Shown here one piece after another: positions 744-35,882 of a stretch of DNA of 64,000 nucleotides (the first letter of the stretch is position 1; each line of letters opens with the position of its first letter). The notes under the pieces are model-generated. The model was given only the letters and a program-made list of their open reading frames with translations, made no database searches and was not told where the DNA came from. Source of the stretch: a phage. The stretch is from the sequence record PZ386977.1. One strand, 5' to 3'. The position numbers and the translations under genes are program-made.

Positions 744-2069
744 TCAAAGTGCCTCCAAGTCTTTAGTGTACTCTGTCACAACATCAGTAGACTTCCAATA
801 CTCATTTTCTTCTTTCTTAGCTTTAGCTTCTTCTGCTAGTTTACGTGCTTCATCGGAAGTGATATGGAAGATGTTAAGACCTACTAGTTTATCGACGTGT
901 TCTTTGTACATTTCGATTTGTGCTAGCTCTTCAGTCAAAGCTTTACGGGTCTTGCCTTGAATCACAATTTCGCCGGCAATAACTTTTTTGATGAAGTGTG
1001 CCTTAGCAAAAGCCAGTTTAAATGCTTTTTCAGATTCAAGAATTTTGTTGTCGATACGTTTCTGAACGTAAGTCTTACGGACTTCAACAAAATCTTTGAT
1101 TAAGTCTACTACATTATCGTAGACAGCTAATTTACCCTTTTCATTAATCACTGTAATGTTTTGTGAACGACGTTCGATGAGACTAAAATCTTTCATGATT
1201 TTTTCATGACGTAGCTCTTCGTCATCTGGAAGCGAGTACTCTTTACGGAACTTCACCTTAAACCCAAAGCCGTGTTCACCACAATCATCTTCCCATGAGA
1301 TTAGACCTTTATCTTCTAATGGGTCAAGAACCTTACTCACATACGTTTCACGGTCGAATTTATATGGTATTTCAGTTATCTGCATTTGAGTGCGAGATGT
1401 GAACTTATATGTTCCGTGAATCTCGTACCGTCCATCAACTTCATGTACTTCACCACTGAATTCCGGGAATTCAACTTTTGGCTTAGTGACATTTTTACCT
1501 TGAAGAGCTTGTAATACAGCCTTTTTTACCGATTTAAAACTATGAGGCAGAATATTTGTTGCGTAACCGGTTGCAATACCAGATACACCATTCAAAAGAA
1601 CTGTCGGAACAATAGGAAGATAGAATTTTGGTGGAACGTGTTCTTTATCTTCATGAGCTGGAGCATATTCAGTATCTTTATAGACATTATAGAAATTTTT
1701 ACTTACACGAGCAAAAATATAACGAGATGCTGCAGCTTTTTGGACTGTTCGAGAACCAAAGTTGCCTTGACCATCTAATAGTGGATAGTTGTTGTTCCAT
1801 GTGTTAGCCATTAATGCACCTGCATCTTGTGCAGAAGATTCACCATGGTGATAACCTAAATCTGCAACACCGCCTGCAATTGACGCAAGTTTATGAAATT
1901 TTTCTTTATTACCACGAGCCAAATCTAACGCACGATGAACCACAAAACGTTGAACCGGCTTAAATCCATCAATCATGTTTGGGATTGCACGGTTTTCAAC
2001 GGTGTACATCGCATATGCTAAGGCTTCGTTATCAATAATACTTTTTAGATTACGAGAATTCAATTGCAT
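744..2069 (-). CDS. 52: DNA topoisomerase II medium subunit (GyrA-like cleavage subunit)
   Basis: 441 aa; N-terminus MQLNSRNLKSIIDNEALAYAMYTVENRAIPNMIDGFKPVQR is the type II topoisomerase A-subunit signature; size matches T4 gp52. Confidence 0.9.
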   Translation of the reverse strand: MQLNSRNLKSIIDNEALAYAMYTVENRAIPNMIDGFKPVQRFVVHRALDLARGNKEKFHKLASIAGGVADLGYHHGESSAQDAGALMANTWNNNYPLLDGQGNFGSRTVQKAAASRYIFARVSKNFYNVYKDTEYAPAHEDKEHVPPKFYLPIVPTVLLNGVSGIATGYATNILPHSFKSVKKAVLQALQGKNVTKPKVEFPEFSGEVHEVDGRYEIHGTYKFTSRTQMQITEIPYKFDRETYVSKVLDPLEDKGLISWEDDCGEHGFGFKVKFRKEYSLPDDEELRHEKIMKDFSLIERRSQNITVINEKGKLAVYDNVVDLIKDFVEVRKTYVQKRIDNKILESEKAFKLAFAKAHFIKKVIAGEIVIQGKTRKALTEELAQIEMYKEHVDKLVGLNIFHITSDEARKLAEEAKAKKEENEYWKSTDVVTEYTKDLEAL

Positions 2070-2073
2070 ATTT

Positions 2074-2214
2074 TCACCATATTAATGAACGAATAACCAT
2101 TATAACATCTGAAATGAAAAGCACTACTTGTATTAGCCCAAACATCACACCGTAGTACAGAACCGTAAGCAACAACAAGAGCCCGAAGGCTCCTGCTAAG
2201 ATTTTCTTAATCAT
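2074..2214 (-). CDS. small hydrophobic membrane peptide (about 46 aa)
   Basis: ATG ORF below the 60-aa cutoff; MIKKILAGAFGLLLLLTVLYYGVMFGLIQVVLF is one predicted TM helix; ends 5 nt before gene 52 ATG; possibly ac-like. Confidence 0.4.
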   Translation of the reverse strand: MIKKILAGAFGLLLLLTVLYYGVMFGLIQVVLFISDVIMVIRSLIW

Positions 2215-2360
2215 TACTCGCCTTTTAACACGTTAAAAAGAGCTAAGACCGCTAAGGTGCCTTGTGATACGGCCTGTTGAAATACCGTTGTTTCGCCTGT
2301 AACTAAAGTGTTAACGAATAAAAACGACCAACACAACAATGCAATAATCCATGATACCAT
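2214..2360 (-). CDS. small hydrophobic membrane peptide (about 48 aa)
   Basis: ATG with GAGGT RBS; MVSWIIALLCWSFLFVNTLVTGE...; stop overlaps next ATG (TAATG coupling). Confidence 0.4.
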   Translation of the reverse strand: MVSWIIALLCWSFLFVNTLVTGETTVFQQAVSQGTLAVLALFNVLKGE

Positions 2361-2412
2361 TTTAATTACCTCACAAATAAATTAAAGGCCTATTAAGTTA
2401 GGCCTGTATAAA

Positions 2413-2859
2413 TTAGTAACTCTGCAGAATAAATTTGAAATTATCGGCCAGAAGACGGTTCATTTCAGTGAGTGTTTGATATTCTGATGTATGGTTGCGA
2501 GTGAACGCTAGAGCCAATTGTCCTTTACCATAACCAGTGGTCAGAGGTTTCATGTTCTTAGCTGAAACAAAGATTACATCGTATTCAATATTGTTAGTGC
2601 CCATGGTACGAGCTAGTTGTGAACGGCCTTGACGAATGTGAGAAAGAATTGCATCTAACCCTTGTTTAGAACGTTGACGTCCTACAAAGAATCGTGCTGC
2701 TACTTGACGCCAGTCAGATGAACCTTTAACGAAGAAGTAAAAACCTTCACGAGAACGAAACTCTTTAGAAACTTCAGAACCATATTCGCCATTACGAACT
2801 ACTGCAACAACTTCACCGCCAACTGCCAGAAGGTCTTTACGAGTTAAATATTTGGACAT
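2413..2859 (-). CDS. hypothetical protein (148 aa), possibly Ndd-like
   Basis: ATG ORF with GAGG RBS and upstream promoter/stem-loop cassette; Ndd assignment is by position and size only. Confidence 0.5.
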
Positions 2860-2896
2860 GCTAATTTCCTCAATTGATTAATGTTTTTGTAATCCA

Positions 2897-2931
2897 TGAG
2901 AGCATTATACTCTGCTCTCAAGAGTTTGTAC
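2897..2931 (-). promoter_or_regulatory. early promoter with embedded inverted repeat (PeSL-like cassette)
   Basis: minus strand TTGTAC-18-TATAAT; TGAGAGC/GCTCTCA inverted repeat spans the -10; near-identical copy at 48484-48518. Confidence 0.5.
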
Positions 2932-2935
2932 AATT

Positions 2936-3136
2936 TTATTCGGTTATATCAGAACGTTCAAAAAGCTCTTCAACAGTTAAACATTCGGTGTCATCCTCAA
3001 TAAAGAATCGGGTCCAACACGTTGGGGCAATGCAGTTATGAGTTTGTCCGGCGATAGAAGCTACACGAATAAGCTGCTGTCCATTATTCAGGACGAATTT
3101 TTCACCAATTTCAACATCTTTAAAAAGCTTAGCCAT
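2936..3136 (-). CDS. hypothetical protein (66 aa)
   Basis: ATG ORF with GAGG RBS and own upstream promoter cassette. Confidence 0.45.
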   Translation of the reverse strand: MAKLFKDVEIGEKFVLNNGQQLIRVASIAGQTHNCIAPTCWTRFFIEDDTECLTVEELFERSDITE

Positions 3137-4541: not shown

Positions 4542-5489
4542 TTATTCTGCAAATAATTCAGTAACGTCTGAAATTACTTCATAACGACAAGTACGCATCT
4601 TAGCATCACCATAGTCAACCGGGATGGATACAACATCACGTGGATGAACTTTAACCTTAACAACTTTATCTGAGCTTGAACCAAAGTGGCGAATATAAGA
4701 TTTAGCACAAACGTGGAGACCGCGAGAACAGGTTTGAGTATCATCGTCGTTAACTCGAGTACGAGGCATTGAAACAACTTTACCTGGGGAGTTATCAAAT
4801 GTACCACTATAGCAGTCTAAATAGTCCTTACGAACTACTTTCCACGCATAGAAATACCCATCTTCAGTGATTTCAATATCATTTGCAACCAAGAAGTCGA
4901 ATAAACGTTGTACAGCTTTTTCGCTCGGGTTTTCTAACAGGTTTTCAAGGAACGGCAGATAGAATTTAAAGTCTTCGCCTTTTTCCATGGAATCAATAAT
5001 ACGATTAACCAGTCCTGAACGAATTTCTATACCTTGATAAAATAAACTACCACCTTCAATAGTAACATTACCATCAACAAACTTACTAATAGCTTTCTTG
5101 ATGTTAATAAGTTCGACAGCTTTACTAAGGTTTCCTGCGACCAGATTAGCTTTAATTTCTTCAAAATTTGCATGACTTGATGGGGTCGCATTGTATGCTA
5201 CGCGTCCTTCAATAATTGAAATAAATTTAGATGACGCGTTCCATACGATTTCAGGACGATGTCCGCCGATAATAGGTTCATCATTTTCTGGAACTTCTTC
5301 GATTACATAAGAGGCATCGTTTGCTTCAGGGACAACGCCTTCTGCTTTAAAATTCTTAACAATCTTACGAAGAGTATCTGTTGAAATGTCGAAGTAATCG
5401 GCAATTTCTTTACGAGTCCATTTGCCTGATTCAACCAGGCCGTAAGCTTCTAACTGTTCTTCTTGGGACAAGCATTTGATATTGTACAT
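4542..5489 (-). CDS. rIIB: rIIB protein (membrane-associated lysis-inhibition/rapid-lysis protein)
   Basis: 315 aa; N-terminus MYNIKCLSQEEQ matches my recollection of T4 rIIB; immediately downstream of rIIA. Confidence 0.8.
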   Translation of the reverse strand: MYNIKCLSQEEQLEAYGLVESGKWTRKEIADYFDISTDTLRKIVKNFKAEGVVPEANDASYVIEEVPENDEPIIGGHRPEIVWNASSKFISIIEGRVAYNATPSSHANFEEIKANLVAGNLSKAVELINIKKAISKFVDGNVTIEGGSLFYQGIEIRSGLVNRIIDSMEKGEDFKFYLPFLENLLENPSEKAVQRLFDFLVANDIEITEDGYFYAWKVVRKDYLDCYSGTFDNSPGKVVSMPRTRVNDDDTQTCSRGLHVCAKSYIRHFGSSSDKVVKVKVHPRDVVSIPVDYGDAKMRTCRYEVISDVTELFAE

Positions 5490-5498
5490 AATGTTTCC

Positions 5499-7712
5499 TT
5501 ATTTGGCCGCTTCCACGGCCTTCATGAATTTAACGATTTGAGCGACCTGTTCTTTAGAAAGAGTACCACGTCGTCCCATGTATTCTGACACAATATGATA
5601 ATTGGTTTCGAATTCAATAACCATTTTATCATCATTATCGTAAGCATTATCTTTAAGCTTATCGAAAATTTTAGCACACAATTCTAACTTCCTGTTCAGG
5701 TCTCTGTTTTCAGCACCTGCGAATCGATTCCATCCCCAACGATTATTTACTGTTGAGAGTTTTGCAAAATCTTTACTGATTTCTTTGTTTTTAGAGCTAA
5801 AATACTTACTAAGGAAGTTAAGCTCTTCATTACGAGTAATATGATTCAAATAAGGCTGTGCTCTACGACTTGGTGATACATACTCATCATAATCCACTTT
5901 ATCGATTAGCGTAATATAGTCATTAATTGATTTTTCGAACAAGCATTCTACTTCACCAAGTTTACGAACTTTTTTAGCAATCTGTGGACGAACTACAGTG
6001 AACTCTTTAATACCTGACAAATCAGCAATACGGGTCAAGAAATTGGAGTCATAGTTCAACCAACCTTTATCTGCGTCAAGACATTCAGCATTAGAACGAT
6101 TACGAACTATAGCATAACCTTGGATTTCATCTGCTTCACTTGCCGGAATAAAGAGGTCTTCTGATACCCAAACATCGTTTTCATTCTTAAAGAATCGATG
6201 AGCACTTGGCGATTTAGGACGAGGCTCGTTAGTCCGTTTCCTGACTTCAATCCATGGCTTAACGATTTGTAAAAGCTCTGAAGTCTTGTACATGTTAATG
6301 TTGTCGCCATCAAAGATAACTTTAAGGCGTTCCAGAAGTTTCATTGCATCTTCGTCTGTAGGGTCAACGAATAGTACACTTTTACCAAAACCGCGTGGAA
6401 CTTTACCAGTTAATTTAACCTCGTCTTTAGACATTTCAATTGAATTAAGAGCTCGCATTAATGGAACGCGTCCCTTAACGTCGTCAATAACGATTTCAAC
6501 ATTTTTAATGTTAATGCCAATCAGGCTGTTAATTGAAATGGTCGATGATGAGCTACCACTTTCACGAATACGACGAAGACGAGGGGATTCAACGATATCG
6601 TATACAACGCCAAGATTACACCACTCAGGCCCCATTTTAAAACGTTTGTACAACTCAGAATAAGTTAATTGTTCTTTAGAGTATTTCAGTGATTCAATAT
6701 TAGACCCGGCCTTTTCCATGTATTTACGAGCGGTATAGCCAAGAGAATCAATTTCACGGAACACATGACGTGGGTATTTACAATCAATCCATTTCTTAGA
6801 ATCTTCAGCGAACAATTTAGCATCGATTTCTGCAACTCGTTTATGGATATTTGCTACTGTACGTTTATCAAATGACAATGCTTCACGAGACGGAGCTACG
6901 TCTAGTTCACCCATAGGGAATTTAATATAAGCTGTAGTGCATCGTGTCATCATCCATGTTTGTTCTTTAATAACACTTCCAATTGGATATACAATACCAC
7001 CATAAACAGCCATGATATTACCACGTTCACCCCATGGAGCTTCCTTGGCCAAATATACATCGTCAAATTCAGGGAAGTATTTAATATCTTTAACACCACG
7101 AACTTCTGCAATATCACCTAGAGGACGCATAACATAAGCAATTTCGGATGCAAACTTTTCAAAATCTTCTGGGTTAACCGGTACGACTACTTCTACACCC
7201 GTACGGTCATCAGGACCCATCTTATCTACAAAGGTTGGCTTAATTTGTGGACCTGTGTCATCTTGGTAGATTACGTAACCACGAACTTCGCCGTTGTGAT
7301 AAGACGTAAGGTTAAACGTATCAGTATATGCTAATGGAGCTTTAGAACCGAGTCCAAATCCACCAATGAAATCGTTGCTCGATGTTTTAGTTGAAGCAAA
7401 ATATGAGTTATAGATTCCTGGCTCTTCGTCATTACCTCGAATGGTGAAATCGCTCATACCAGGACCAAAGTCTCGAACTACAAAGCGTGGGTCTAAACGA
7501 CCTGGAGCCTGAACAATAAACTTATCAGTGCAACCATTAAGAATTTGTCCATCGATACAGTTTGTAATTAATTCACGTACACAAGCCAATTCTTTGTTTG
7601 TATAAAGGTCATTAGACAAAATCTTATAAACTTTGCTATTGCCTTGAATAGTGAATGCTGTGCTCTTACCGCCTGAACCAATAATCGTTTCTTTAGCCGT
7701 TTCAATAATCAT
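5499..7712 (-). CDS. rIIA: rIIA protein
   Basis: 737 aa; N-terminus MIIETAKETIIGSGGKST (GHKL-like ATPase start); size and position match T4 rIIA. Confidence 0.8.
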   Translation of the reverse strand: MIIETAKETIIGSGGKSTAFTIQGNSKVYKILSNDLYTNKELACVRELITNCIDGQILNGCTDKFIVQAPGRLDPRFVVRDFGPGMSDFTIRGNDEEPGIYNSYFASTKTSSNDFIGGFGLGSKAPLAYTDTFNLTSYHNGEVRGYVIYQDDTGPQIKPTFVDKMGPDDRTGVEVVVPVNPEDFEKFASEIAYVMRPLGDIAEVRGVKDIKYFPEFDDVYLAKEAPWGERGNIMAVYGGIVYPIGSVIKEQTWMMTRCTTAYIKFPMGELDVAPSREALSFDKRTVANIHKRVAEIDAKLFAEDSKKWIDCKYPRHVFREIDSLGYTARKYMEKAGSNIESLKYSKEQLTYSELYKRFKMGPEWCNLGVVYDIVESPRLRRIRESGSSSSTISINSLIGINIKNVEIVIDDVKGRVPLMRALNSIEMSKDEVKLTGKVPRGFGKSVLFVDPTDEDAMKLLERLKVIFDGDNINMYKTSELLQIVKPWIEVRKRTNEPRPKSPSAHRFFKNENDVWVSEDLFIPASEADEIQGYAIVRNRSNAECLDADKGWLNYDSNFLTRIADLSGIKEFTVVRPQIAKKVRKLGEVECLFEKSINDYITLIDKVDYDEYVSPSRRAQPYLNHITRNEELNFLSKYFSSKNKEISKDFAKLSTVNNRWGWNRFAGAENRDLNRKLELCAKIFDKLKDNAYDNDDKMVIEFETNYHIVSEYMGRRGTLSKEQVAQIVKFMKAVEAAK

Positions 7713-7724
7713 GTTTTTCTCTCA

Positions 7725-7925
7725 TCACAAGTTACGTTTAAAAATTTCTGCTACTTCAAGAAGTTCTTCTTTAGTAGCTGTATCGGTTTGTATTTTATAT
7801 CGAATTTCTTTAAAGCGTTCTTTAAAGGACTCTGCTGACTCGATATCAAAAAATCTTTGGATAAGCCGGAATTCCCGGAGCACTGCTTTATCAAAAAGTT
7901 CCAAGTCCACGTTATATGTTCTCAT
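7725..7925 (-). CDS. hypothetical protein (66 aa), rIIA.1 position
   Basis: ATG ORF immediately upstream of rIIA. Confidence 0.45.
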   Translation of the reverse strand: MRTYNVDLELFDKAVLREFRLIQRFFDIESAESFKERFKEIRYKIQTDTATKEELLEVAEIFKRNL

Positions 7926-7950
7926 AATATTCTCTTCAGTAGATTCCTAG

Positions 7951-8001
7951 GGCACTATTACTAAAGACCATATAATCTATCATCTTATGTGTAATAGTGC
8001 C
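7951..8001. repeat. perfect 11-bp inverted repeat with 29-nt AT-rich loop
   Basis: GGCACTATTAC ... GTAATAGTGCC; loop contains TATAAT; lies between the glycosyltransferase stop and the 66-aa ORF. Confidence 0.6.
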
Positions 8002-8017
8002 TCAGGCGATTCAGGAT

Positions 8018-9118
8018 TTACGCTGTGAAGATTTTATCCCACATCGCAACAACTGCATCTCGGTTATACTTCTTCCATACTGCTTCAGCACGTTTAACTC
8101 TAGCTTCGTATGTGTCAGTGAATTCTAATACAGCTTTTGTGTAAAGCGCAACTACTTCTTTCTTAGGAGTAGAGGAATCAATTTCTACACGCACAGTATC
8201 TGGGTCATATTCGAATGTCGCGTGCGGATAATCCTTAAAAACTAACTGAATCACAGGGACACCTTTAGAGATGGCTTCAATAGAACTATTCTCTACTGTA
8301 CCTGTGTCAGGACACGTATTGATAAGTGCTTTAGCTGTTTTAAGACGTTCCATGATTTCACTGTGTGGAGCATCAATAATAACAGGATATTTAGCTGGCG
8401 GTGCCCATTTACTAGGACAGTATCCTGCACCGTTTTCGCCTAGTGCTTTAATCGCTTCAAGAGCAACATCAGTACGACGCATCTTAGTGTCATAACGTTG
8501 AGCACTAATAATCAGATCAGTCGCTGGAAGAACTTCAGGTTTCTCATTCAAACAAATAACCGGATAATCTTCGGCTTCAAACAACGGATTTGCTCGCCAA
8601 TAATCATAATCAATTTTGTCAGTCAGACCTGAAGTCATATAACAATATTTGCGTTCAAATTCACGGAAGGCTTTAGTAGGAGCATAACTCTTGCCACCAT
8701 TCTTATGAATTTGAATAGTCTGGTCCCAAATTTGAACAATGCCACGAGATACCGGTTCAAATGGTGTTGCCATAAAATTCTTATGAACTTTAGAGAGACC
8801 TGCGTCTTTAATTGCCTGAACGGTTAGTTTGGTCGGTTCCATTGTAACAACGAAATCGTACTCATTGATGCCGGCTAGTTCAACAATCTTACGAGCCATA
8901 GTATAACTCATACCTAGACTGAATTTAGTCAGACGACCAACAGGATGATGATTAACCTTCCAGTCACCAAACGTGTCATTATCAAAGCCGATATAATCAA
9001 TATCAGCACCGATGGACACAAGATATTTCAACACATTTAAATGTACCGCTTCAAGACCACCTTGTACACGTTCTGGGTTAAATGGGACTGCGCGAGATGG
9101 GATAAACATAACTTTCAT
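8018..9118 (-). CDS. GT-B fold glycosyltransferase (GT4-like), candidate DNA hmC glycosyl/arabinosyl-transferase
   Basis: 366 aa; N-terminal MKVMFIPS...ERVQGGLEAVHLNVLKYL and C-terminal TGTVENSSIEAISKGVPVIQ resemble GT4 family motifs; occupies the rIIA-39 interval. Confidence 0.7.
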   Translation of the reverse strand: MKVMFIPSRAVPFNPERVQGGLEAVHLNVLKYLVSIGADIDYIGFDNDTFGDWKVNHHPVGRLTKFSLGMSYTMARKIVELAGINEYDFVVTMEPTKLTVQAIKDAGLSKVHKNFMATPFEPVSRGIVQIWDQTIQIHKNGGKSYAPTKAFREFERKYCYMTSGLTDKIDYDYWRANPLFEAEDYPVICLNEKPEVLPATDLIISAQRYDTKMRRTDVALEAIKALGENGAGYCPSKWAPPAKYPVIIDAPHSEIMERLKTAKALINTCPDTGTVENSSIEAISKGVPVIQLVFKDYPHATFEYDPDTVRVEIDSSTPKKEVVALYTKAVLEFTDTYEARVKRAEAVWKKYNRDAVVAMWDKIFTA

Positions 9119-9129
9119 AATTAAGCCTT

Positions 9130-9162
9130 ATTAAAATTAAAATGAAGCTCCCGAAGGAGCTT
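9130..9162 (-). terminator. rho-independent terminator after gene 39
   Basis: AAGCTCC-TTCG-GGAGCTT hairpin followed by CATTTTAATTTTAAT on minus strand. Confidence 0.55.
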
Positions 9163-10978
9163 AGGACATCCATTCTTTACGAAGTTCTGAATCATCACCC
9201 AACAACATTTCAAAGAGTTCTTTCCAATTTTCAGGAAGTTTAACTACGTCGTACACAGGGTTCTGAATCATTTCACGATACTCTGACTTTTCAAGGGAGC
9301 CTAATCCCTTGATGTATCGAATACTATGCTTAGGCAGCGTATCTTTAGCTTCTTCATACTCAGCTACAGTATAAAACCATTTTTGAGTTTTGCCAATTTG
9401 TGCAATAATTACAGGTGTTTTAACAAAGCGAATACGTCCTTGTTCAAACAATTCAGGCCAATTACTAAAGAAAGCAAGCAAAGCCGGATAGATACTTCCA
9501 AGGCCGTCATGATCGGCATCGGTCATAATTGCAATATTACGATAGTTCGTATTCTCTGCCTTTTCACCAAGAATAAGACCTGTGATAGCACAGATATCGA
9601 ATAACTCTTTGTTCTTCATCATATCAGCATATGACATACCCCAGCTATTCATCACCTTACCACGTAATGGGAATCCACCGTGTAGTTCACGGTCACGAAC
9701 ATCAATGAGATATCCAATCGCCGAATCACCTTCTGTTAAGAACAATGTCGTATCTGCATCTTTACCACATTGGTTAGCTTTAATATGCTTATGAACCTTA
9801 GCTTTAGTTGCCTTTTTAGCTGCTTTAGTTTCTGCAGCCTTTTCTGCTGCCAATTTACGAGCTAATGCTGCTTCAACAATAGGCATAATCAAAGCTTCGT
9901 TTTTAAGAAGTGCCTGAGCAATTTTCTTAGCATCTAATTGGATATGATTACGAATATCACCATACGTTGACGTTAAACGTTCTTTAGTCTGAGAATCAAA
10001 ACGCATGTTGCTCATGTCTCTAATAAACATCAACATTGTGAGGCATTCTTTAACACGAGCTTTAGTGACTTCAATACCCTTATATTTCTTTTTAATACCA
10101 GGCAAAAGATGTTCGCAGATATCGTCCATTACACATTCAACATGATGTCCACCATTTTTAGTATGGATGTTATTCACATAAGTTAAATGACGGAAGCCAT
10201 CTGGTGATGTTGTGAATGCTATAGAGACTTTATCATTTTCTTGAATGATATTATCTTCACCAAATTGTTTAGCAAATCGTTTAAAATTACCATCAACCTT
10301 TTTACCATTAAATGTGAACTTGATATCAGGATAAACGACTGCCAATGTTTGAAGTCGGTCTAAAGTAATATCTAAATAAATTTGAGATAAATTATGCTCT
10401 TCAAATGAAGTGAAATCAGGAGTGAAGATTACTTTAGTGCCTTTACCTTTAGATTTCTTAGAAGACCATGATTTGTTTTCCATTCCGTTTGAACAGTTAA
10501 CAGTGATTTCATTTTCGCCATCTGACGTGATGCCTGTAAACAACGTAGAGAAGATATTAGTTAAACTACTCCCGACGCCGTTCATACCACCAGTCTTGCG
10601 TTCAGAGTCATCACCAAAGTTACCACCGGCTTTTGGAATAGTCCAGGCTGCTACAGGTCCAGGAATTTGTTCACCCGTTTGGTCGGTAACTAAACCTTGA
10701 GGAATACCGCGTCCGTTATCTTCCACCGAAACTTGGTTATTTTTAATTTGCACATCAATTTTATTTGCAAACTTAAATGATGTACGAATAGCTTCATCAA
10801 CCGAGTTGTCAATAATCTCATCGATTAATTTAACCAGACCTGGAACATATTCAACTTGTTGATATTTACCAAACAAAAAACGCTCATGGGCTTCTTTGGC
10901 CGAAGAACCAATATACATGCCACTACGTTTCTTAATATGTTCTACATCTGACAATACCTTAATTTCATTTTTAATCAT
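9161..10978 (-). CDS. 39: DNA topoisomerase II large subunit (GyrB-like ATPase), single uninterrupted ORF covering T4 genes 39 and 60
   Basis: 605 aa; N-terminus MIKNEIKVLSDVEHIKKRSGMYIGSS and GHKL ATPase motifs (VEDNGRGIP); continuous frame with no bypass-like gap. Confidence 0.9.
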   Translation of the reverse strand: MIKNEIKVLSDVEHIKKRSGMYIGSSAKEAHERFLFGKYQQVEYVPGLVKLIDEIIDNSVDEAIRTSFKFANKIDVQIKNNQVSVEDNGRGIPQGLVTDQTGEQIPGPVAAWTIPKAGGNFGDDSERKTGGMNGVGSSLTNIFSTLFTGITSDGENEITVNCSNGMENKSWSSKKSKGKGTKVIFTPDFTSFEEHNLSQIYLDITLDRLQTLAVVYPDIKFTFNGKKVDGNFKRFAKQFGEDNIIQENDKVSIAFTTSPDGFRHLTYVNNIHTKNGGHHVECVMDDICEHLLPGIKKKYKGIEVTKARVKECLTMLMFIRDMSNMRFDSQTKERLTSTYGDIRNHIQLDAKKIAQALLKNEALIMPIVEAALARKLAAEKAAETKAAKKATKAKVHKHIKANQCGKDADTTLFLTEGDSAIGYLIDVRDRELHGGFPLRGKVMNSWGMSYADMMKNKELFDICAITGLILGEKAENTNYRNIAIMTDADHDGLGSIYPALLAFFSNWPELFEQGRIRFVKTPVIIAQIGKTQKWFYTVAEYEEAKDTLPKHSIRYIKGLGSLEKSEYREMIQNPVYDVVKLPENWKELFEMLLGDDSELRKEWMS

Positions 10979-23288: not shown

Positions 23289-23948
23289 TTAACCTCGATT
23301 CATAAATGCATTAAATATTTGGTCATCAACAGAAATTTCTAATTCGACTTCAATTGCTTCAGCCTTTTCTTCAGGTGGTAATTCGTATCCACATACTACA
23401 ATTTTTTCATCGATATCAAAATATACAGAAGCAATATGATTAATGTTATTTTCAGTTAAGTCTAAATCAACATCAACATCTTTTTGACCTACACTTAAAG
23501 GATAACTAATACGGGTTATTTTATTATCTTTAACAAAGAGTCCACCAACATACTCTGTACTACGTTTGAAGTTTACACGTTTCCGAATTGAAAGATATGA
23601 TACATCTTTACCGTGAGCTCGGCTCATAGGACATAATGAATAACTAGAATAAGAGATGTCAAATCCTACGCCTTCAACATGTGCTAGAGTATCATGAGTA
23701 AACCAATTATAGTCGTATGCCAAATCCATTAAATTATAATATGTGAAAGGCACAGGATTAACGTCATACGTTGTACCTTTAAAATCTGCCCAGGCAACGA
23801 TTTCGTTATCTTTAACAATTACAAAAATTACACCAATATGGTATCCGTTATTATTTTCATTCGGCGTTATATTATAACATTGTGCATTAGGAAATTTACC
23901 ATATTTAAATGGCGCGTTTTTGTGCATGTAATAAATCATATTATTCAC
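23289..23948 (-). CDS. hypothetical protein (219 aa)
   Basis: ATG ORF. Confidence 0.5.
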   Translation of the reverse strand: MNNMIYYMHKNAPFKYGKFPNAQCYNITPNENNNGYHIGVIFVIVKDNEIVAWADFKGTTYDVNPVPFTYYNLMDLAYDYNWFTHDTLAHVEGVGFDISYSSYSLCPMSRAHGKDVSYLSIRKRVNFKRSTEYVGGLFVKDNKITRISYPLSVGQKDVDVDLDLTENNINHIASVYFDIDEKIVVCGYELPPEEKAEAIEVELEISVDDQIFNAFMNRG

Positions 23949-29331: not shown

Positions 29332-29880
29332 TTAACGAGCCCATTTGATGATTTCTGTAATCAAACCATTACGTTCGCTTGCATTAAATCCTATAACTTT
29401 GTTAGCACCATCATGATTAAGTAATTGATACGTTTGGATTTTGTTATGAATTGCAAACTCTTCAAAATGTGAAATGACTGTATTAAAACCGAATGAAGAC
29501 AAAGTAATAAGGTCGTCTTCAAAACTTTCAGTCATTTCGTTACGTGTTAAAATAATTGTGAACACATCATGGTTTTGGCAAAGACGAACATAATCCTGCT
29601 CATAAACATCAAGAACAGAGTCCGCATCTTGTCGAATACGTCCATAAACCCAGTTACTAATATATCCACGGTCTAACAGATAAATCTTAGTAGGGTCTAA
29701 ATAATTCAACATCGTTTCGAAACAGCCAACTTCATTTCTAGACTTAACATCGAAACGTCCATCAACTGTTCGTTTAGGGAAATCAATCTTTACATATCTT
29801 TCACTAATTTCCATTATGTCATTAATGAAAGTTGTTTTACCAGCATTATCCGGGCCATCTACTAAAATAATTTTAGCCAT
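29332..29880 (-). CDS. P-loop kinase-like protein (nucleoside/nucleotide kinase fold)
   Basis: 182 aa; Walker A GPDNAGKTT and LDRGYIS (DRY-like motif of dNK/TMPK kinases); located in the T4 beta-gt interval. Confidence 0.55.
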   Translation of the reverse strand: MAKIILVDGPDNAGKTTFINDIMEISERYVKIDFPKRTVDGRFDVKSRNEVGCFETMLNYLDPTKIYLLDRGYISNWVYGRIRQDADSVLDVYEQDYVRLCQNHDVFTIILTRNEMTESFEDDLITLSSFGFNTVISHFEEFAIHNKIQTYQLLNHDGANKVIGFNASERNGLITEIIKWAR

Positions 29881-29881
29881 T

Positions 29882-30781
29882 TTATTCCTCGATTACGACA
29901 TCTTCGTATTTAGGTATATTATACGGTGAAGAAATTAAAGCATTAAAGTAGATGAACTCACCAAGACCTGGATGGAATACTTCTTCAGGATTTTCGAAAT
30001 ATTGAATCTTCGGACGTCCTTTAAGAATTTGATAGTACTCAGTTTTAGTTGGATTAAAAATTCGAATCAGCGCTTCTTCAGGATACTTATTTCTGTCGAA
30101 ACTATTATTTGGATCAGTTATATAAAGCGGTTGACCTAATTGAATTGCGCATTCAACCACTTGTTCAAAACGATAGCATGGGTCACTAATTCGAAATGGA
30201 TGAAAAATACCATCTAGATGAATAGGAGCCAAATCACCTACAAGACGCTGCATGACGGAAGGACATATAACTTTCTGCGTTACGATAATCTTATTACCAT
30301 CTGCACCTGCGTTAACCAGCACTTCTTTTTGACGTTCATTCAACACAGTAGTTTGAAGTGAACGATTAACAGACAACATGTCGGTTTTTAAGAATTCATC
30401 AATATAAAAACGTGGTTTATTAGGGTCTGCAGTGATATTGAAATTGAATTCTACGTCAAAAGCGCCATCATATCCAGTGATATCTGTGATTAGAAAATCA
30501 CAATCATAATAAGCAATTAATGAATCAACCACAAATTCATTTTCAGACCAGAAATATTTACGAGTGTTATACGCGTTATCTTTATACCATAATGGAACAA
30601 ACTTAAATTCTGGGAAAAGACGTTCACATTCTTTAATATCAGATGCATTACGTGGATATGTAATCACATCACCTGGATTAGCACGGTGCAAATGAAGTTG
30701 GAAGTTGCCATCCTTAAGGATGGCATACTGTCCAGTTTCATAAGACCGCATACTCAAGATTGGTACGCGGAAAATAGCCAT
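29882..30781 (-). CDS. hypothetical protein (299 aa) in the beta-gt slot; candidate DNA sugar-transferase
   Basis: ATG ORF translationally coupled (TAATG) to gene 42; no recognisable motif; positional inference only. Confidence 0.5.
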   Translation of the reverse strand: MAIFRVPILSMRSYETGQYAILKDGNFQLHLHRANPGDVITYPRNASDIKECERLFPEFKFVPLWYKDNAYNTRKYFWSENEFVVDSLIAYYDCDFLITDITGYDGAFDVEFNFNITADPNKPRFYIDEFLKTDMLSVNRSLQTTVLNERQKEVLVNAGADGNKIIVTQKVICPSVMQRLVGDLAPIHLDGIFHPFRISDPCYRFEQVVECAIQLGQPLYITDPNNSFDRNKYPEEALIRIFNPTKTEYYQILKGRPKIQYFENPEEVFHPGLGEFIYFNALISSPYNIPKYEDVVIEE

Positions 30782-31497
30782 TAGTCAAGGAATCCTTTAA
30801 CATAATCAAAATCACGTTCAAACACATGGGCACTTACCATGGTATGAGTATAATCACCAACTTCTACACCGCATTCGTTAGCGATATAATGAAGTAATTT
30901 TCCTTGGAGATAAAAATCCAACTGCATAACAACAGCACAGTTCTGAGAACGCATATGACAGTGGGTATAAAGCTTACCATCACGAATATAATAAGTTACT
31001 GAGTCAGTACATGGATATTCAAGTGTTTCGTCCGAATCAAGCAAAGCCTGATCAGAACTTTCTAGAATTTGGAACACAACTCTTCGAGAGTTAGGTTTTT
31101 CTTTAAGTTCTTTTAGAAGAGTTGGTAATTGGGCCGCAATGCGAGGACCATAGAAAGTGTTGAAGTTCGCCGGCAAAACATCTGATTTTGGTTTAGAAAT
31201 AAATTTAGCGACATTAGGATATGCCTTAAACGCTTCTTCTGCGTTGGTACCACCAGAAATCATAAACTTCCAGAAGTCTTCGGCATATTCATAAGAGATG
31301 CGGTTAATACGTGGGTCGGTCATTTTGAATGATGACGGATTGTCAACAACTACTGTCATGGACCCAATTTCATTACAACGTCCAATACGAGAATCAGTTA
31401 CGAATTCCGGGTTTTCTAAAATTTCACGATTGACTGCTTTAAATGCGGTTTGAAAATCTGCGGCTTTGATATATTTCATTGTGTTATGTTTTCCCAT
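30781..31497 (-). CDS. 42: dCMP hydroxymethylase (thymidylate-synthase family)
   Basis: 238 aa; PCTDSVTYYIRD and MRSQN motifs typical of TS/dCMP-HMase fold; position matches T4 gene 42. Confidence 0.7.
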   Translation of the reverse strand: MGKHNTMKYIKAADFQTAFKAVNREILENPEFVTDSRIGRCNEIGSMTVVVDNPSSFKMTDPRINRISYEYAEDFWKFMISGGTNAEEAFKAYPNVAKFISKPKSDVLPANFNTFYGPRIAAQLPTLLKELKEKPNSRRVVFQILESSDQALLDSDETLEYPCTDSVTYYIRDGKLYTHCHMRSQNCAVVMQLDFYLQGKLLHYIANECGVEVGDYTHTMVSAHVFERDFDYVKGFLD

Positions 31498-31516
31498 GTT
31501 TACCTCAATACAATTT

Positions 31517-31542
31517 ATTATATACTCGATTCGTAAAGCTTA
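31517..31542 (-). promoter_or_regulatory. candidate MotA-dependent middle promoter for gene 42
   Basis: minus strand AAGCTTTA (MotA-box-like), 11 nt, TATAAT, about 20 nt before ATG. Confidence 0.4.
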
Positions 31543-31779
31543 TTTGAATTTCTTGGCAGTGTTGATATACCGTAAAGCTTCAGCATCGATACTTCCAAGA
31601 ACACTATGAAGAAATGCATCAGCGTAGTATTCCAATTGAACAGGTTCTTTAATCACTTTAGCCGCTTTGGTTTCAAACAGGCCCATAAGGGCCTTTTTAA
31701 GAATTTGTTCGTTAGTGTTCAGTTTAATAGTCAAAATCTCTTCATTAAGTTGATGATTAAAAGTTTTTCTAGAAATCAT
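31540..31779 (-). CDS. hypothetical protein (79 aa)
   Basis: ORF coupled (ATGA overlap) to the upstream 386-aa gene; not membrane-like, so not Imm. Confidence 0.45.
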   Translation of the reverse strand: MISRKTFNHQLNEEILTIKLNTNEQILKKALMGLFETKAAKVIKEPVQLEYYADAFLHSVLGSIDAEALRYINTAKKFK

Positions 31780-32936
31780 TCCGGGTACCTCAGAGCGTCA
31801 TCAGAGTTAGTTATATCAATAATAGATATAGAGTTTTCTGCTAACCCGTTTTTAGATAATTGACGTTTATAATATCTTTCACAATATGTACACGTTGATC
31901 CGCAGATTTCATTAGCACAATCAAAATCTGGATGTCTGAACCACCTTTTTTCTAAAAAGCCATCTAACAAAGAGGTTTCAATATTTACTGTATGTGAAAA
32001 CTCGGTCTCGTTTTCAAGAGTGAAAATGGTCTCTAAAGGCTTCCACAGTTCTAACAAATTACCTTCAAACTTTTCAGAAGCATAAGCTTCAAGAACTTTC
32101 AAAATGTAGTCGGTGCTACCTGTACGTCCTGAAACTTTGAATTGAGTGATACCAATATCATTATAAAGTTTCAAATCTTGAGGACGAACAAAACGAGTTC
32201 TCAACCAGTTAAATGGGTCTGTATCACGAGCTTTAATACAGTGCTGCATTGGATATCCGTTTAAGGATTTAGCATCATCAGCTGTAACATCAGTACTATG
32301 GAAAATATAGCAAGAGTCACGATAGCTACAATGTGTTGTATACCCTTTACCAGCATTAGAACAGAACTCATTTACAAGAACTTCAAATATTATATTGTTC
32401 TTATTGCAAAACTCTGCTGCACGCTTCAGGAAAGAAACTGAACGGTTCTTATGAATTCCGCAACAGACTTTTTTGATGTTATATTGGTCGTGCAAGTATT
32501 TGATTTGAGTTACAGCATCGACATGTAGAATTGTTGAAACTTCAATCTCAATGTCTTTATTGACTTCACGAACAATTTCCATAACAACAGGGTTAGCGAT
32601 AGTAATACGCCATACGCCTATTGACCAAAGATACTGAACATAATCCTGAATAGCTTTCTTCTTCCACTCGACTAGTTCTCTTTTTGAACCAGGATTTATC
32701 GTGTTGAGTGTATAGTTAAAGCAAATACCTAATTCGTTACAACGTTTAACGTAATCTTCTAACATCTTTTTGTCAACGTCAGGAAGCCTAAAATCAGGTC
32801 TGGCTGCTACAAAAGCCATTTCTCTTGTAGAGCCATATACTTCGTTTATCAAGCTATTAGGATAGGTTTTATTGAGCTCTACGATTTTATCAAGAAGAGC
32901 TAAATCAAAATTCGTTCCGATTTTAAAAGTATTCAT
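31776..32936 (-). CDS. Cys-rich hypothetical enzyme (386 aa), part of the modification cassette
   Basis: C-terminal cluster CANEICGSTCTYC plus further conserved Cys; no confident family assignment. Confidence 0.55.
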   Translation of the reverse strand: MNTFKIGTNFDLALLDKIVELNKTYPNSLINEVYGSTREMAFVAARPDFRLPDVDKKMLEDYVKRCNELGICFNYTLNTINPGSKRELVEWKKKAIQDYVQYLWSIGVWRITIANPVVMEIVREVNKDIEIEVSTILHVDAVTQIKYLHDQYNIKKVCCGIHKNRSVSFLKRAAEFCNKNNIIFEVLVNEFCSNAGKGYTTHCSYRDSCYIFHSTDVTADDAKSLNGYPMQHCIKARDTDPFNWLRTRFVRPQDLKLYNDIGITQFKVSGRTGSTDYILKVLEAYASEKFEGNLLELWKPLETIFTLENETEFSHTVNIETSLLDGFLEKRWFRHPDFDCANEICGSTCTYCERYYKRQLSKNGLAENSISIIDITNSDDALRYPE

Positions 32937-32993
32937 TTTTTTGCATCTCGCGTTAATTGATGCGATGGTTTTTTGCAGGTCTTACTTAAATTA

Positions 32994-33380
32994 TTATAGA
33001 TTCGGTTTATATGATTTAAATGTTTCGAATTCGCCTTTATTCATAAGAGCTTTGAATTCGTCAGGACGCATAGCTTTGTCGTCGATAATCCAATCATATA
33101 CTGGTTTATGTGTTAGCAAATTATGGTACTTCAAGCCAATGTTTGCCAAGTTCTGAATCAGACTTGGGAGAATGTCAATTGCTATACGTCCAGGACCTAC
33201 TGACTTCATACCACGAGCAGTGTAAAGCGTTATGGTGTGCCCTGCATCATACAGGGCATTAATGGCGGACACCATTTCGACGTCTGGTTTGAAGTTCACA
33301 TAATCACGATTGTTATTCCATTCCGTGATGCAATCATCGACATCAAAACAAAGATTAAGCATGTTTTCTACACGGTGCAT
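32994..33380 (-). CDS. small HAD-superfamily phosphatase (capless, KdsC-like)
   Basis: motif I FDVDDCITEW, motif II ITLYTARG, motif III/IV K...WIIDDKA; start trimmed to ATG overlapping upstream stop. Confidence 0.55.
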   Translation of the reverse strand: MHRVENMLNLCFDVDDCITEWNNNRDYVNFKPDVEMVSAINALYDAGHTITLYTARGMKSVGPGRIAIDILPSLIQNLANIGLKYHNLLTHKPVYDWIIDDKAMRPDEFKALMNKGEFETFKSYKPNL

Positions 33381-35065
33381 TAGATTCGTTCCCATTGATG
33401 AGTGATATCGCCACCGATTGGACGATAGGAAACACCAGTTTCTTTATCAGTTAGTACCCATTTACCAGGATTTTTTGTAATCAGAGTAGCCGTTACAGGT
33501 TCTGCTACGTCATAACTAATAGAGCCATCTTGAAGTACACGGCCCATGTTACGTAATTGCTTAGTCAGAAGTTCCATACCTTTATAATATGCGGCTACCG
33601 CTTTAAGTGGATTATTCTTGAAATAACCACCTAATGCAATCCAGATAATTGCTACTGCCAAATGATGATACTCGTTAAACGAACTCATCTTTCCATATTT
33701 GTAAACTAATGGATTGATGTTAATAGTCACATTACAAGTTGTTTCATCAATAATAAACTGACCCCAGGTCGGATTAGCATTGAATTCATCATAACCTGAA
33801 ACAGCATAAAGCACTTTAGCTTCATCATACAATTTTGGCCCGTAAATCTTGGTTTCACCAAAATATCCACGAGGGTCGATAAACTTGACTTCGCCGTTAT
33901 CAGTAATCATAGTATTACTGAAGTTCGGGTCACCATGAATAACAGAGTACTGTCCCTGAGAACGGTTATGATAACGAATAAGATGTTCTAAAGCTTGTTT
34001 CAACATTGGCTTCAGACGTCCAATCTTAGTGTAGTTCACGTGTGTGATTTTACCAAATGAATCAATCAATGGCTGAATGCTTTCACAACGATCAATAACT
34101 TTCGTATAGAACTCTTTAGTGAAATCACGGCGAACAGTTTCAGGACTTACAAAATAAGTGTCTGTGCTGAATTTCAGTGCATCTAAAATTGCATCAACAA
34201 TTTGTGGACGAGCAAGACTTGATTTGGATTTAATATATTCAAATGCCGGCTTACCTTTAATACGTTCCATTTCAAAGTTATTTTCATTAACAGAAACTAA
34301 CTGAGGGACTGAATCTGATTTCACTTTCAAATACCATGAAATCTCATCTTTCTGAAGAGCTCGACCCTGTTCGGTTAATGCGAATTTAGTTACAGTTTCT
34401 TCACCAATTTCAACTGCATTAAAACTACGATTAAGTTCACGAACTTCATGAGCTTTTTCAAGTTTAGGCATATCACCTAAATCAATTATATTCATAAGCT
34501 CTGATTTATTGAATGCGCCGCTGTAAAGGAATTCTACGAAATCACGTCCTTTGCAGTATTCATGAATTTCCTCATCAGTAGAACCCATATAGAATTCCCA
34601 GTCTTTGAACTGATAAATTCCTACAACATTACCACCTGTTGAACCTACGTTAGTGATATTTTCACCATCGAAATTATATCGACATTCATCACCCTTAACA
34701 TAGATTGCGTTAACATTCCAAGACCATGAACCAAAGTCAGGAATAATATCACACCAGTTAACAATTACGTTATGGCCATCTAAATCTTTGTATAATTTAG
34801 CAAGAGCATAAGCAGAACCATACGCTTCATCAACTGTACGAATAGTCACATTGAACCCTTCTTGCTCGCAATAAGCTCGAACAGTTTCAGCAAATTTTGA
34901 ATGAACTACTACAATAATTTCATCTGCGCCAAGGTCAGAATAAATTGTATACAAATTGCTCAGAATAGTGTCTTGTTTATAGTTAACAAGCACCTTAGGA
35001 ATATGGTGCGTTATTGGATACAAACGAGTTGCCAGTCCAGCACCAAGAATAACAGCTTTTTTCAT
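33380..35065 (-). CDS. bifunctional sugar-1-phosphate nucleotidyltransferase (N-terminal) / sugar kinase (C-terminal, APH/choline-kinase fold)
   Basis: 561 aa; N-terminal AVILGAGLATRL and GSAYAL motifs; C-terminal HGDPNFSNTMI and FIDPRG kinase motifs. Confidence 0.65.
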   Translation of the reverse strand: MKKAVILGAGLATRLYPITHHIPKVLVNYKQDTILSNLYTIYSDLGADEIIVVVHSKFAETVRAYCEQEGFNVTIRTVDEAYGSAYALAKLYKDLDGHNVIVNWCDIIPDFGSWSWNVNAIYVKGDECRYNFDGENITNVGSTGGNVVGIYQFKDWEFYMGSTDEEIHEYCKGRDFVEFLYSGAFNKSELMNIIDLGDMPKLEKAHEVRELNRSFNAVEIGEETVTKFALTEQGRALQKDEISWYLKVKSDSVPQLVSVNENNFEMERIKGKPAFEYIKSKSSLARPQIVDAILDALKFSTDTYFVSPETVRRDFTKEFYTKVIDRCESIQPLIDSFGKITHVNYTKIGRLKPMLKQALEHLIRYHNRSQGQYSVIHGDPNFSNTMITDNGEVKFIDPRGYFGETKIYGPKLYDEAKVLYAVSGYDEFNANPTWGQFIIDETTCNVTININPLVYKYGKMSSFNEYHHLAVAIIWIALGGYFKNNPLKAVAAYYKGMELLTKQLRNMGRVLQDGSISYDVAEPVTATLITKNPGKWVLTDKETGVSYRPIGGDITHQWERI

Positions 35066-35106
35066 GTTGTGGTCCTCATTGGTAAGTAGGTGTATTGTAC
35101 ACTATT

Positions 35107-35250
35107 CTAGTTAAAGCATTCATACTTTGCTTGTAGCCCAATCATAATCCATCCGATTATAAGAGTCGGAATCATTACTGGAGCCGTTAAGCTCCAGTAG
35201 ATAGTCATGACAAGCATCAATAGTAAAAGTCCTATTGTTATTGCTTTCAT
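35107..35250 (-). CDS. small hydrophobic peptide (about 47 aa)
   Basis: MKAITIGLLLLMLVMTIYWSLTAPVMIPTLIIGWIMIGL; ATG overlaps isomerase stop (ATGA); below ORF-track cutoff. Confidence 0.35.
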   Translation of the reverse strand: MKAITIGLLLLMLVMTIYWSLTAPVMIPTLIIGWIMIGLQAKYECFN

Positions 35251-35882
35251 TGTTCGCCTCGTAACATGGCACCTAGTGAACCGCCTGGATGGAACTTAAG
35301 GAAGTCATTAGAGGTAAATCCACGTTCAGACGAAAGGTTGATAGCGAACGTATCGATAAGCGCTAACAACAATGTAGTGGACATGGTCGGAGCCAGAGAA
35401 TTCTCATCAACCTCTACCGCGATGCCTGTACAGAACGTATAATCAAAAAGAGCTTCGTATTCTTGCGGAATGTCAGGGTTACAATGTAACAGAATCTGTT
35501 TAACCTGAGGACGAATCATACGAAGATGTTTAGCAACACCTATCATTTCTTCAGTCTTACCAGAACGACTGATGTGAACTAATACATCATTAGGTGCAAT
35601 AAATCCTGCGTCGCCATGAGAATAATGCCCGGTGTTCAAATACATGCTAGGAATACCTAGTGAAGCAAAAGTCTCGGAAGCTTTAGTTGCGATATTAGCG
35701 TTCTTACCAACACCTGTAATAATTACTCGGCTTTCATAATTACTCAGTCCAGGGCGACGAAGAGTTTCAAGAATAGCATTATATCGGGCAGAGTTTTGAC
35801 TAATTACTTTAGCCATAGTGGCAAGAGATGAAGCTTGTTTTACGATTGCGTCAATAGCGATAGTGATTGGTGTAGTTTTCAT
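35247..35882 (-). CDS. D-arabinose-5-phosphate isomerase (SIS domain, KdsD/GutQ type)
   Basis: 211 aa; ITGVGKNANIATKASETFASLGIPS...SHGDAG and HISRSGKTEE match the KdsD SIS-domain core. Confidence 0.7.
   Translation of the reverse strand: MKTTPITIAIDAIVKQASSLATMAKVISQNSARYNAILETLRRPGLSNYESRVIITGVGKNANIATKASETFASLGIPSMYLNTGHYSHGDAGFIAPNDVLVHISRSGKTEEMIGVAKHLRMIRPQVKQILLHCNPDIPQEYEALFDYTFCTGIAVEVDENSLAPTMSTTLLLALIDTFAINLSSERGFTSNDFLKFHPGGSLGAMLRGEQ

Follow-up and report, generated by a model that had tools for sequence, protein, structure and literature searches.

A Mosigvirus GT-B glycosyltransferase encoded between rIIA.1 and gene 39 as the probable second, chain-extending DNA arabinosyltransferase

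Overview

The 366-aa protein encoded between rIIA.1 and gene 39 of the window (the whole 64,000-nucleotide stretch of phage DNA analyzed here, accession number PZ386977.1) was a GT-B glycosyltransferase and most probably the second, chain-extending DNA arabinosyltransferase, using UDP-arabinofuranose (UDP-Araf) on mono-arabinosylated 5-hydroxycytosine (5hoC) DNA. This assignment was drawn from the following: (i) relatives of the gene were found only alongside the transferase of the arabinose cassette (the cassette transferase; RB69 gp46:47 type), (ii) their copy number tracked the number of sugars, and (iii) the homologous pair from Acinetobacter phage DLP3 extended arabinosylated DNA. The gene itself was already known: it was put forward in 2018 as the arabinosyltransferase of RB69, carries an annotation in BASEL records, and was reassigned to the second arabinose in 2026, and its product has been crystallized; its only residual novelty lay in whether the enzyme retains or inverts.

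Genetic location and flanking signals

The window was a Mosigvirus (RB69-like) genome. The ORF listing of the window confirmed the 366-aa ORF picked out in the sequence-only reading; it had an ATG start and occupied the slot flanked by rIIA.1 and topoisomerase gene 39, here unsplit, with all neighbors on the same strand (Table 1). The order rIIA, rIIA.1, transferase, and unsplit gene 39, present in the window, was the Mosigvirus arrangement. The corresponding T4 order was rIIA.1, 60, 60.1, mobA, and 39, and the earlier claim that the transferase replaces T4 gene 60/mobA was right as to position (the slot of 60/60.1/mobA) but not as to content, the gene 60 content being kept in gp39 residues 473-605. 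The window gp39 was unsplit and composed of 605 aa, with residues 1-474 matching T4 gp39 and residues 473-605 matching T4 gp60, and it thus marked a phage without the T4 gene 60 split, translational bypass, and mobA insertion.

The transferase ORF was preceded by a Shine-Dalgarno-like sequence and, farther 5', by a GC-rich hairpin with a T-rich tail (Table 1). This hairpin looked terminator-like by its sequence; its folding energy (-11.4 kcal/mol, z only -0.8) was not statistically unusual and was weak as statistical evidence. A sigma-70-type promoter was sought just upstream of the transferase gene, and none was convincing, the count being no higher than that in shuffled sequence. With a terminator-like hairpin on its 5' side, the transferase gene was probably dependent on read-through from upstream.

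The 92-nt spacer from the transferase stop to the rIIA.1 start harbored a long stable hairpin, with a perfect stem of 11 bp (GGCACUAUUAC/GUAAUAGUGCC) and further pairs on its flanks (folding energy -28.5 kcal/mol; z -5.2; 0 of 200 shuffles as good). The spacer was near base-for-base the same in RB69, Bas46, and JK45, and it bore no relation to the spacer that separates 60 from rIIA.1 in T4. Possible roles for the hairpin are in RNA processing or stability, in termination, or in the regulation of rIIA.1/rIIA.

Table 1. Coordinates of the transferase locus, the modification cassette, and other features in the window
Feature	Position	Strand	Basis or remark
rIIA	5499..7712	(-)	
rIIA.1	7725..7925	(-)	66 aa
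Long stable hairpin between transferase stop and rIIA.1 start	7946-8006	(-)	
Transferase ORF	8018..9118	(-)	366 aa, ATG start
Shine-Dalgarno-like AAGG	9126..9129	(-)	7 nt 5' of ATG at 9118; read directly from the letters
GC-rich UUCG-loop hairpin, then T-rich tail CATTTTAATT	9145..9162	(-)	Terminator scan; between gene 39 stop and transferase start
Gene 39	9161..10978	(-)	605 aa
Anti-DarT factor A (AdfA)	23289-23948	(-)	219 aa; full-length Pfam PF23813, E 1.3e-119
Nucleotide-kinase-like protein (RB69 gp45)	29332..29880	(-)	98.9% identical to gp45; weak dTMP-kinase P-loop match
Transferase of 299 aa (RB69 gp46:47, DLP3 gp79 type)	29882..30781	(-)	99%/98% identical to gp46/gp47; 46% to DLP3 gp79
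Thymidylate-synthase homologue (RB69 gp48), 5-hydroxy-dCMP synthase type	30781..31497	(-)	Pfam PF00303; 98.3% identical to gp48
U32-peptidase-like protein (RB69 gp50)	31776..32936	(-)	Pfam PF01136; 99% identical to gp50
HAD-type phosphatase (RB69 gp51, AfhF type)	32994..33395	(-)	99% identical to gp51; TIGR01689 capsule biosynthesis phosphatase, E 4e-13
Bifunctional nucleotidyltransferase plus sugar kinase (RB69 gp52:53, AfhE type), UDP-arabinofuranose synthesis	33380..35065	(-)	Pfam NTP_transferase N-terminal; kinase-like matches C-terminal
SIS-domain arabinose-5-phosphate isomerase (RB69 gp55)	35247..35882	(-)	Pfam SIS; 95.7% identical to gp55

Identity and conservation of the transferase gene

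The sequence comparison was applied to the 366-aa protein together with RB69 ORF003c/gp3 (NP_861693.1; same slot in RB69), Bas46 gene 0103 (bas46_0103; labeled 'putative hmC-arabinosyltransferase' in the BASEL record), and PDB entries 9IQZ ('phage HY126 glycosyltransferase') and 9IR0 (the same 'with UDP'), released on 2025-07-16. The 366-aa protein was identical to the RB69 protein and to the Bas46 protein at 362 of 366 residues each (99%) and 98% identical to 9IQZ/9IR0. PHROG 8302 ('unknown function') matched residues 1-366 of 366 (E 7.7e-222).

By megablast, the gene was found in 156 phage records with 90-98.5% identity, all of them RB69-like (Mosigvirus-type) Escherichia/Shigella phages and almost all with the label hypothetical; the phage NP copy had 97.7% nucleotide identity to the window copy. 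The window gene displayed 30 synonymous and 4 non-synonymous codon differences from RB69 (dN/dS 0.035), which pointed to a constrained, functional gene under strong purifying selection, and the ORF was intact in about 154 of the 156 Mosigvirus records. In phage LH01 (PP434429.1), the gene was in two pieces, as though frameshifted. Shigella phage JK45 (MK962757.1; positions 1501-3104 of extract L003) contained a full transferase gene and, behind it, a 411-bp partial duplicate of the 3' end annotated as a separate ORF, to be explained either by partial duplication in tandem or by faulty assembly; JK45 was classed as Tequatrovirus, yet its transferase locus was Mosigvirus-like. A word-indexed homologue search gave 5 clusters only, and exhaustive phmmer against 1.84 billion representatives gave 15 hits (8 below 1e-30); these homologues were too few for a deep alignment.

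The modification cassette and the modified base

A complete RB69 gp45-gp55 cassette was present at 29332..35882 with 96-99% identity (Table 1), so that the donor-synthesis cassette expected elsewhere in the window by the sequence-only reading was indeed there. The AfhF-type phosphatase is proposed to convert Araf-1,5-P2 into Araf-1-P (PMC13326640, citing He et al. 2026).

Intact ORFs of 299 aa and 561 aa (29882-30781 and 33380-35065) were found where the RB69 record splits gp46/gp47 and gp52/gp53, respectively (positions 1598-2498 and 5095-6781 of extract L005); these splits have been described as sequencing errors (PMC6024577, PMC13326640), in agreement with the intact ORFs of the window, and a 561-aa product is also what the corrected RB69 sequence is predicted to encode (PMC6024577). 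The U32-peptidase-like gene lay within the Mosigvirus cassette, and no ORF of comparable size was found inside the Maestro or DLP3 cassettes.

The thymidylate-synthase homologue was the sole T4 gp42 relative in the window and only 25% identical to gp42; a gp42-type dCMP hydroxymethylase, as needed for synthesis of the hmC acceptor, was not found in the window. The product of the thymidylate-synthase homologue displayed D169N (window MRSQNCAVVMQLD versus T4 gp42 MRSNDVVFGFRND, i.e., RSQN versus RSND), with N at ThyA position 169, and its RSQN..LD motif, in an ungapped register checked against T4 gp42, corresponded to D169N/N177D as published. RB69 gp48 makes 5-hydroxy-dCMP, not 5-hydroxymethyl-dCMP, with D169N as the diagnostic residue (Lee et al., NAR 2026, PMC13326640). 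The gene-42 homologue being of this verified 5-hydroxy-dCMP synthase type, the acceptor base is 5-hydroxycytosine and not hmC, as had been claimed at first, and the sugar is arabinofuranose from UDP-Araf. The RB69 base is beta-D-Araf-(1-3)-alpha-D-Araf-O-5-deoxycytidine, and both mono- and di-arabinosyl forms occur (PMC13326640); Mosigvirus NP has the same mono- and di-arabinosyl forms, and the earlier 'arabinosyl-hmC' assignment was stated to be wrong (PMC13390438).

Fold and invariant residues

The window transferase is a GT-B glycosyltransferase: a 98%-identical solved structure was deposited as a glycosyltransferase, with UDP by title. The AlphaFold model made from a 6-sequence alignment was of moderate quality (pLDDT 62.7; C-terminal domain >80; residues 114-187, the N-domain linker, unmodelled), and it displayed a cleft between two Rossmann-like domains. 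In comparison with a fold library, the model recovered 9IQZ best and then GT4-type GT-B enzymes (PimA, BshA, WaaG, and MshA-like), in agreement with the GT-B fold read from the letters. A GT-B glycosyltransferase in a DNA sugar-modification pathway, as first proposed, was borne out by the identity to 9IQZ/9IR0, the predicted structure, and the cassette in the window.

The GT4-type motifs stood in part: both peptides quoted for them were present and GT4 folds were the nearest, but ordinary sequence models gave no match. The Pfam scan of the 366-aa protein had nothing at E<=1, including PF00534 (Glycos_transf_1) and PF13439 (Glyco_trans_4), the NCBIfam scan had no match, and a 16-sequence family profile run against PDB sequences found its own structure only, with no GT4 chain at E<=10. 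Placement in GT4 by sequence models was thus impossible, the motifs lying below ordinary sequence detection.

The conservation alignment covered 16 family members with identity down to 35%, including the DLP3 pair, and it contained 36 invariant positions, among them E94 (at the end of the fourth N-domain strand), R125, Q207-R208-x-D210, R214, N267-T268-C269, G273-T274-x-E276, E281-A282, G286, H299-A300-T301-x-E303, R340, and R343. The conserved R208, R214, E276, and E281 were all located in the C-terminal domain; the 'with UDP' state of 9IR0 was known by title. In an alignment to EX7E made by eye and not structure-based, the second Glu corresponded to invariant E281 (IEAISKGVPV), while 8 residues upstream there was invariant G273, with invariant E276 instead.

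Distribution and copy number of the two transferases

No sequence similarity was detectable between the window transferase and the cassette transferase. By tblastn, the cassette transferase type was found in 349 phage records (Escherichia, Acinetobacter, Klebsiella, Serratia, Enterobacter, Proteus, Yersinia, Edwardsiella, and others), including phages carrying only one arabinose, while relatives of the window transferase were found in 212 records only: single copies in about 155 Mosigvirus, two places per record in 55 Acinetobacter T4-like phages, and one Tegunavirus. In both Acinetobacter phages that were examined, Maestro and DLP3, the cassette ran isomerase, bifunctional enzyme, phosphatase, 5hodCMP synthase, first transferase, and kinase, and two tandem relatives followed it directly. 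The sugar number is one in Thanatos (single transferase), one and two in RB69, NP, Bas46, and Bas47, and three in DLP3 (PMC13326640, PMC13390438, PMC12923530). The copy number of the relatives thus tracked the sugar number, with one copy in di-arabinosylating Mosigvirus and two in tri-arabinosylating Acinetobacter phages.

The single Tegunavirus record contained a distant relative (<60% identity), while other Yersinia/Tegunavirus-type phages showed only the cassette transferase by tblastn; this relative may represent a second poly-arabinosylating lineage.

The window transferase was 42.6% identical to DLP3 gp77 and 40.6% identical to DLP3 gp76, which were 57.5% identical to each other. In vitro, DLP3 gp77 and gp76 acting together transfer a third arabinose from UDP-Araf to the virion DNA of RB69 (PMC13326640, section 26), from which it followed that the family extends arabinose chains on DNA. 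On 5hoC DNA, the single DLP3 transferases show no activity, and the third sugar requires both paralogues (PMC13326640), so the published step-by-step assignment, with cassette gp46:47 proposed as the base-proximal enzyme and the orthologue of the window gene as the second-arabinose enzyme (PMC13326640, PMC13390438), was still partly a proposal. The window transferase being about equidistant from the two DLP3 paralogues, orthology could not say which step it performs.

Proposed function and alternative explanations

The mechanism best fitting these data would start with phage DNA in which cytosine is replaced by 5-hydroxycytosine. The cassette transferase would add the first, base-proximal arabinose, and the window transferase, acting as a soluble GT-B glycosyltransferase, would take as its acceptor the DNA already bearing one alpha-D-arabinofuranose. 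The donor UDP-arabinofuranose would be made by the part of the cassette at 32994..35882, and a second arabinofuranose (beta-1,3 in RB69) would be added, turning 5-ara-hC into 5-ara-ara-hC. With this larger sugar, the DNA would be better shielded from host nucleases. Within this scheme, we infer the second-rather-than-first transfer, the polymeric DNA acceptor, and the stereochemistry.

Addition of the first, base-proximal arabinose onto the 5-hydroxyl of cytosine by the window transferase, with gp46:47 doing something else or adding the second sugar, was considered unlikely. ORF003c was proposed as 'the' arabinosyltransferase (Thomas et al. 2018, PMC6024577), an enzyme of the window type was chosen for crystallography with UDP, and no first-sugar activity was found for any single DLP3 transferase (PMC13326640); however, many genera have the 5hoC/UDP-Araf cassette plus gp46:47 without a relative of the window gene, Thanatos is mono-arabinosylated with a gp46:47-type enzyme only (PMC13326640), and the closest characterized relatives, DLP3 gp76/gp77, act on already arabinosylated DNA. 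Attachment of the sugar to the base, the role given to the window transferase in the sequence-only reading, was accordingly probably not its function; the cassette transferase is the proposed base-proximal enzyme, and the phyletic pattern agreed with this.

Two further readings were rejected. A non-DNA acceptor (a host envelope glycolipid, LPS, or a phage or host protein) was suggested by the distance of about 21 kb between the Mosigvirus gene and the modification cassette and by the top non-self structural matches (PimA, WaaG, and BshA), which are lipid, LPS, or small-molecule transferases, but such neighbors at 10-15% identity were uninformative on the acceptor. Both Acinetobacter homologues lay directly after the cassette (kinase, then two transferases) and modify DNA in vitro, and the family was limited to cassette-carrying phages, leaving a non-DNA acceptor very improbable. 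That the gene is a remnant with a GT-B-like fold, in decay or without function, was scarcely conceivable: dN/dS was 0.035, nearly all Mosigvirus ORFs were intact, 36 residues were invariant down to 35% identity, and the protein was crystallized with UDP, as against the lack of a Pfam/NCBIfam match, the missing canonical first Glu of GT4 EX7E, and the few records with a frameshift (LH01) or partial duplication (JK45).

With chain extension as the preferred function, the stereochemistry was considered. In RB69, the first arabinose is alpha and the second is beta (PMC13326640); with opposite anomers and a presumed single UDP-Araf pool, one transferase must retain and the other must invert. The window transferase might, quite tentatively, be the inverting one on a GT4-like scaffold, and it would then represent a new CAZy-level family with unusual chemistry. 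The features relevant to this suggestion were the closest solved folds, all of them retaining GT4, the absent first EX7E Glu, and the invariant N-domain Glu E94.

Arabinosylated 5-hydroxycytosine is a recently characterized hypermodification by which Mosigvirus and its relatives are protected against restriction enzymes, DNA glycosylases, and some CRISPR systems; which defences a phage escapes changes with its arabinose number. The window gene was most likely the determinant of the change from one to two sugars and was thus relevant to choosing or engineering therapeutic phages, and its product was a possible tool for glyco-labelling of DNA. The chain-extending enzymes were reportedly called 'Aat' by Mahler et al. 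in 2025. According to a citing paper, deletion of Aat in Bas46 sensitized the phage to a defence system. The window additionally encoded AdfA (Table 1), a counter-defence gene unrelated to the transferase.

Comparison with known systems

The window transferase and RB69 ORF003c/gp3, Bas46 0103, and HY126 glycosyltransferase shared the same full-length protein, slot, and companion cassette with 98-99% identity, and they differed by only 4-8 conservative substitutions, i.e., the window gene was another allele of the same gene.

DLP3 gp77/gp76 and Maestro 078/077 were members of the family of the window transferase, with 41-43% identity over the full length (E 1e-99 to 1e-109), and the DLP3 pair shared with the window transferase the invariant residues E94, R125, Q207-R208, R214, E276, and E281 among others. 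UDP-Araf use and chain extension on DNA have been shown for the DLP3 relatives (PMC13326640). These relatives constituted a tandem pair in the cassette, while the Mosigvirus gene was single and 21 kb from the cassette, and Mosigvirus DNA stops at two arabinoses.

The bacterial GT4 retaining enzymes (PimA, BshA, WaaG, and MshA-like) had the nearest solved folds apart from 9IQZ. They shared with the window transferase the C-terminal 'xEAxxxGxPVI' signature with invariant E281 and the N-terminal GG loop, but identity was 10-15%, no PF00534/PF13439 match was found, and the first EX7E Glu was replaced by G273; moreover, the proposed acceptor was DNA-linked arabinose, unlike those of the bacterial GT4 enzymes.

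RB69 ORF003c was originally found by HMM/HHpred links to T4 alpha-gt and GT4 structures, including an HHpred link to 1XV5 (Thomas et al. 2018, PMC6024577), and the second-sugar enzyme of T2/T6 is mentioned in PMC6024577 and PMC13390438. The earlier statement that T4 alpha-gt and beta-gt have a different fold signature did not hold, both being GT-B too and differing in family, not fold (PMC6024577). No homologue of T4 alpha-gt/beta-gt was found in the window by blastp, tblastn, or family HMM (nothing better than E about 0.1-8), and the window transferase itself had no similarity in sequence to either enzyme by BLAST or family HMM. T4 alpha-gt (CAZy GT72) and beta-gt (GT63) were likewise phage GT-B enzymes that use a UDP-sugar and decorate hydroxylated cytosine in phage DNA, but they put glucose on 5-hydroxymethylcytosine, whereas the window system would put arabinofuranose on 5-hydroxycytosine, and their acceptor was the base, whereas that of the window transferase was probably a sugar. 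The beta-alpha-glucosyltransferase of T2/T6, which makes gentiobiosyl-hmC, was a functional analogue of the window transferase, i.e., a second transferase extending the first sugar on a modified cytosine, but with a different sugar, base, and family.
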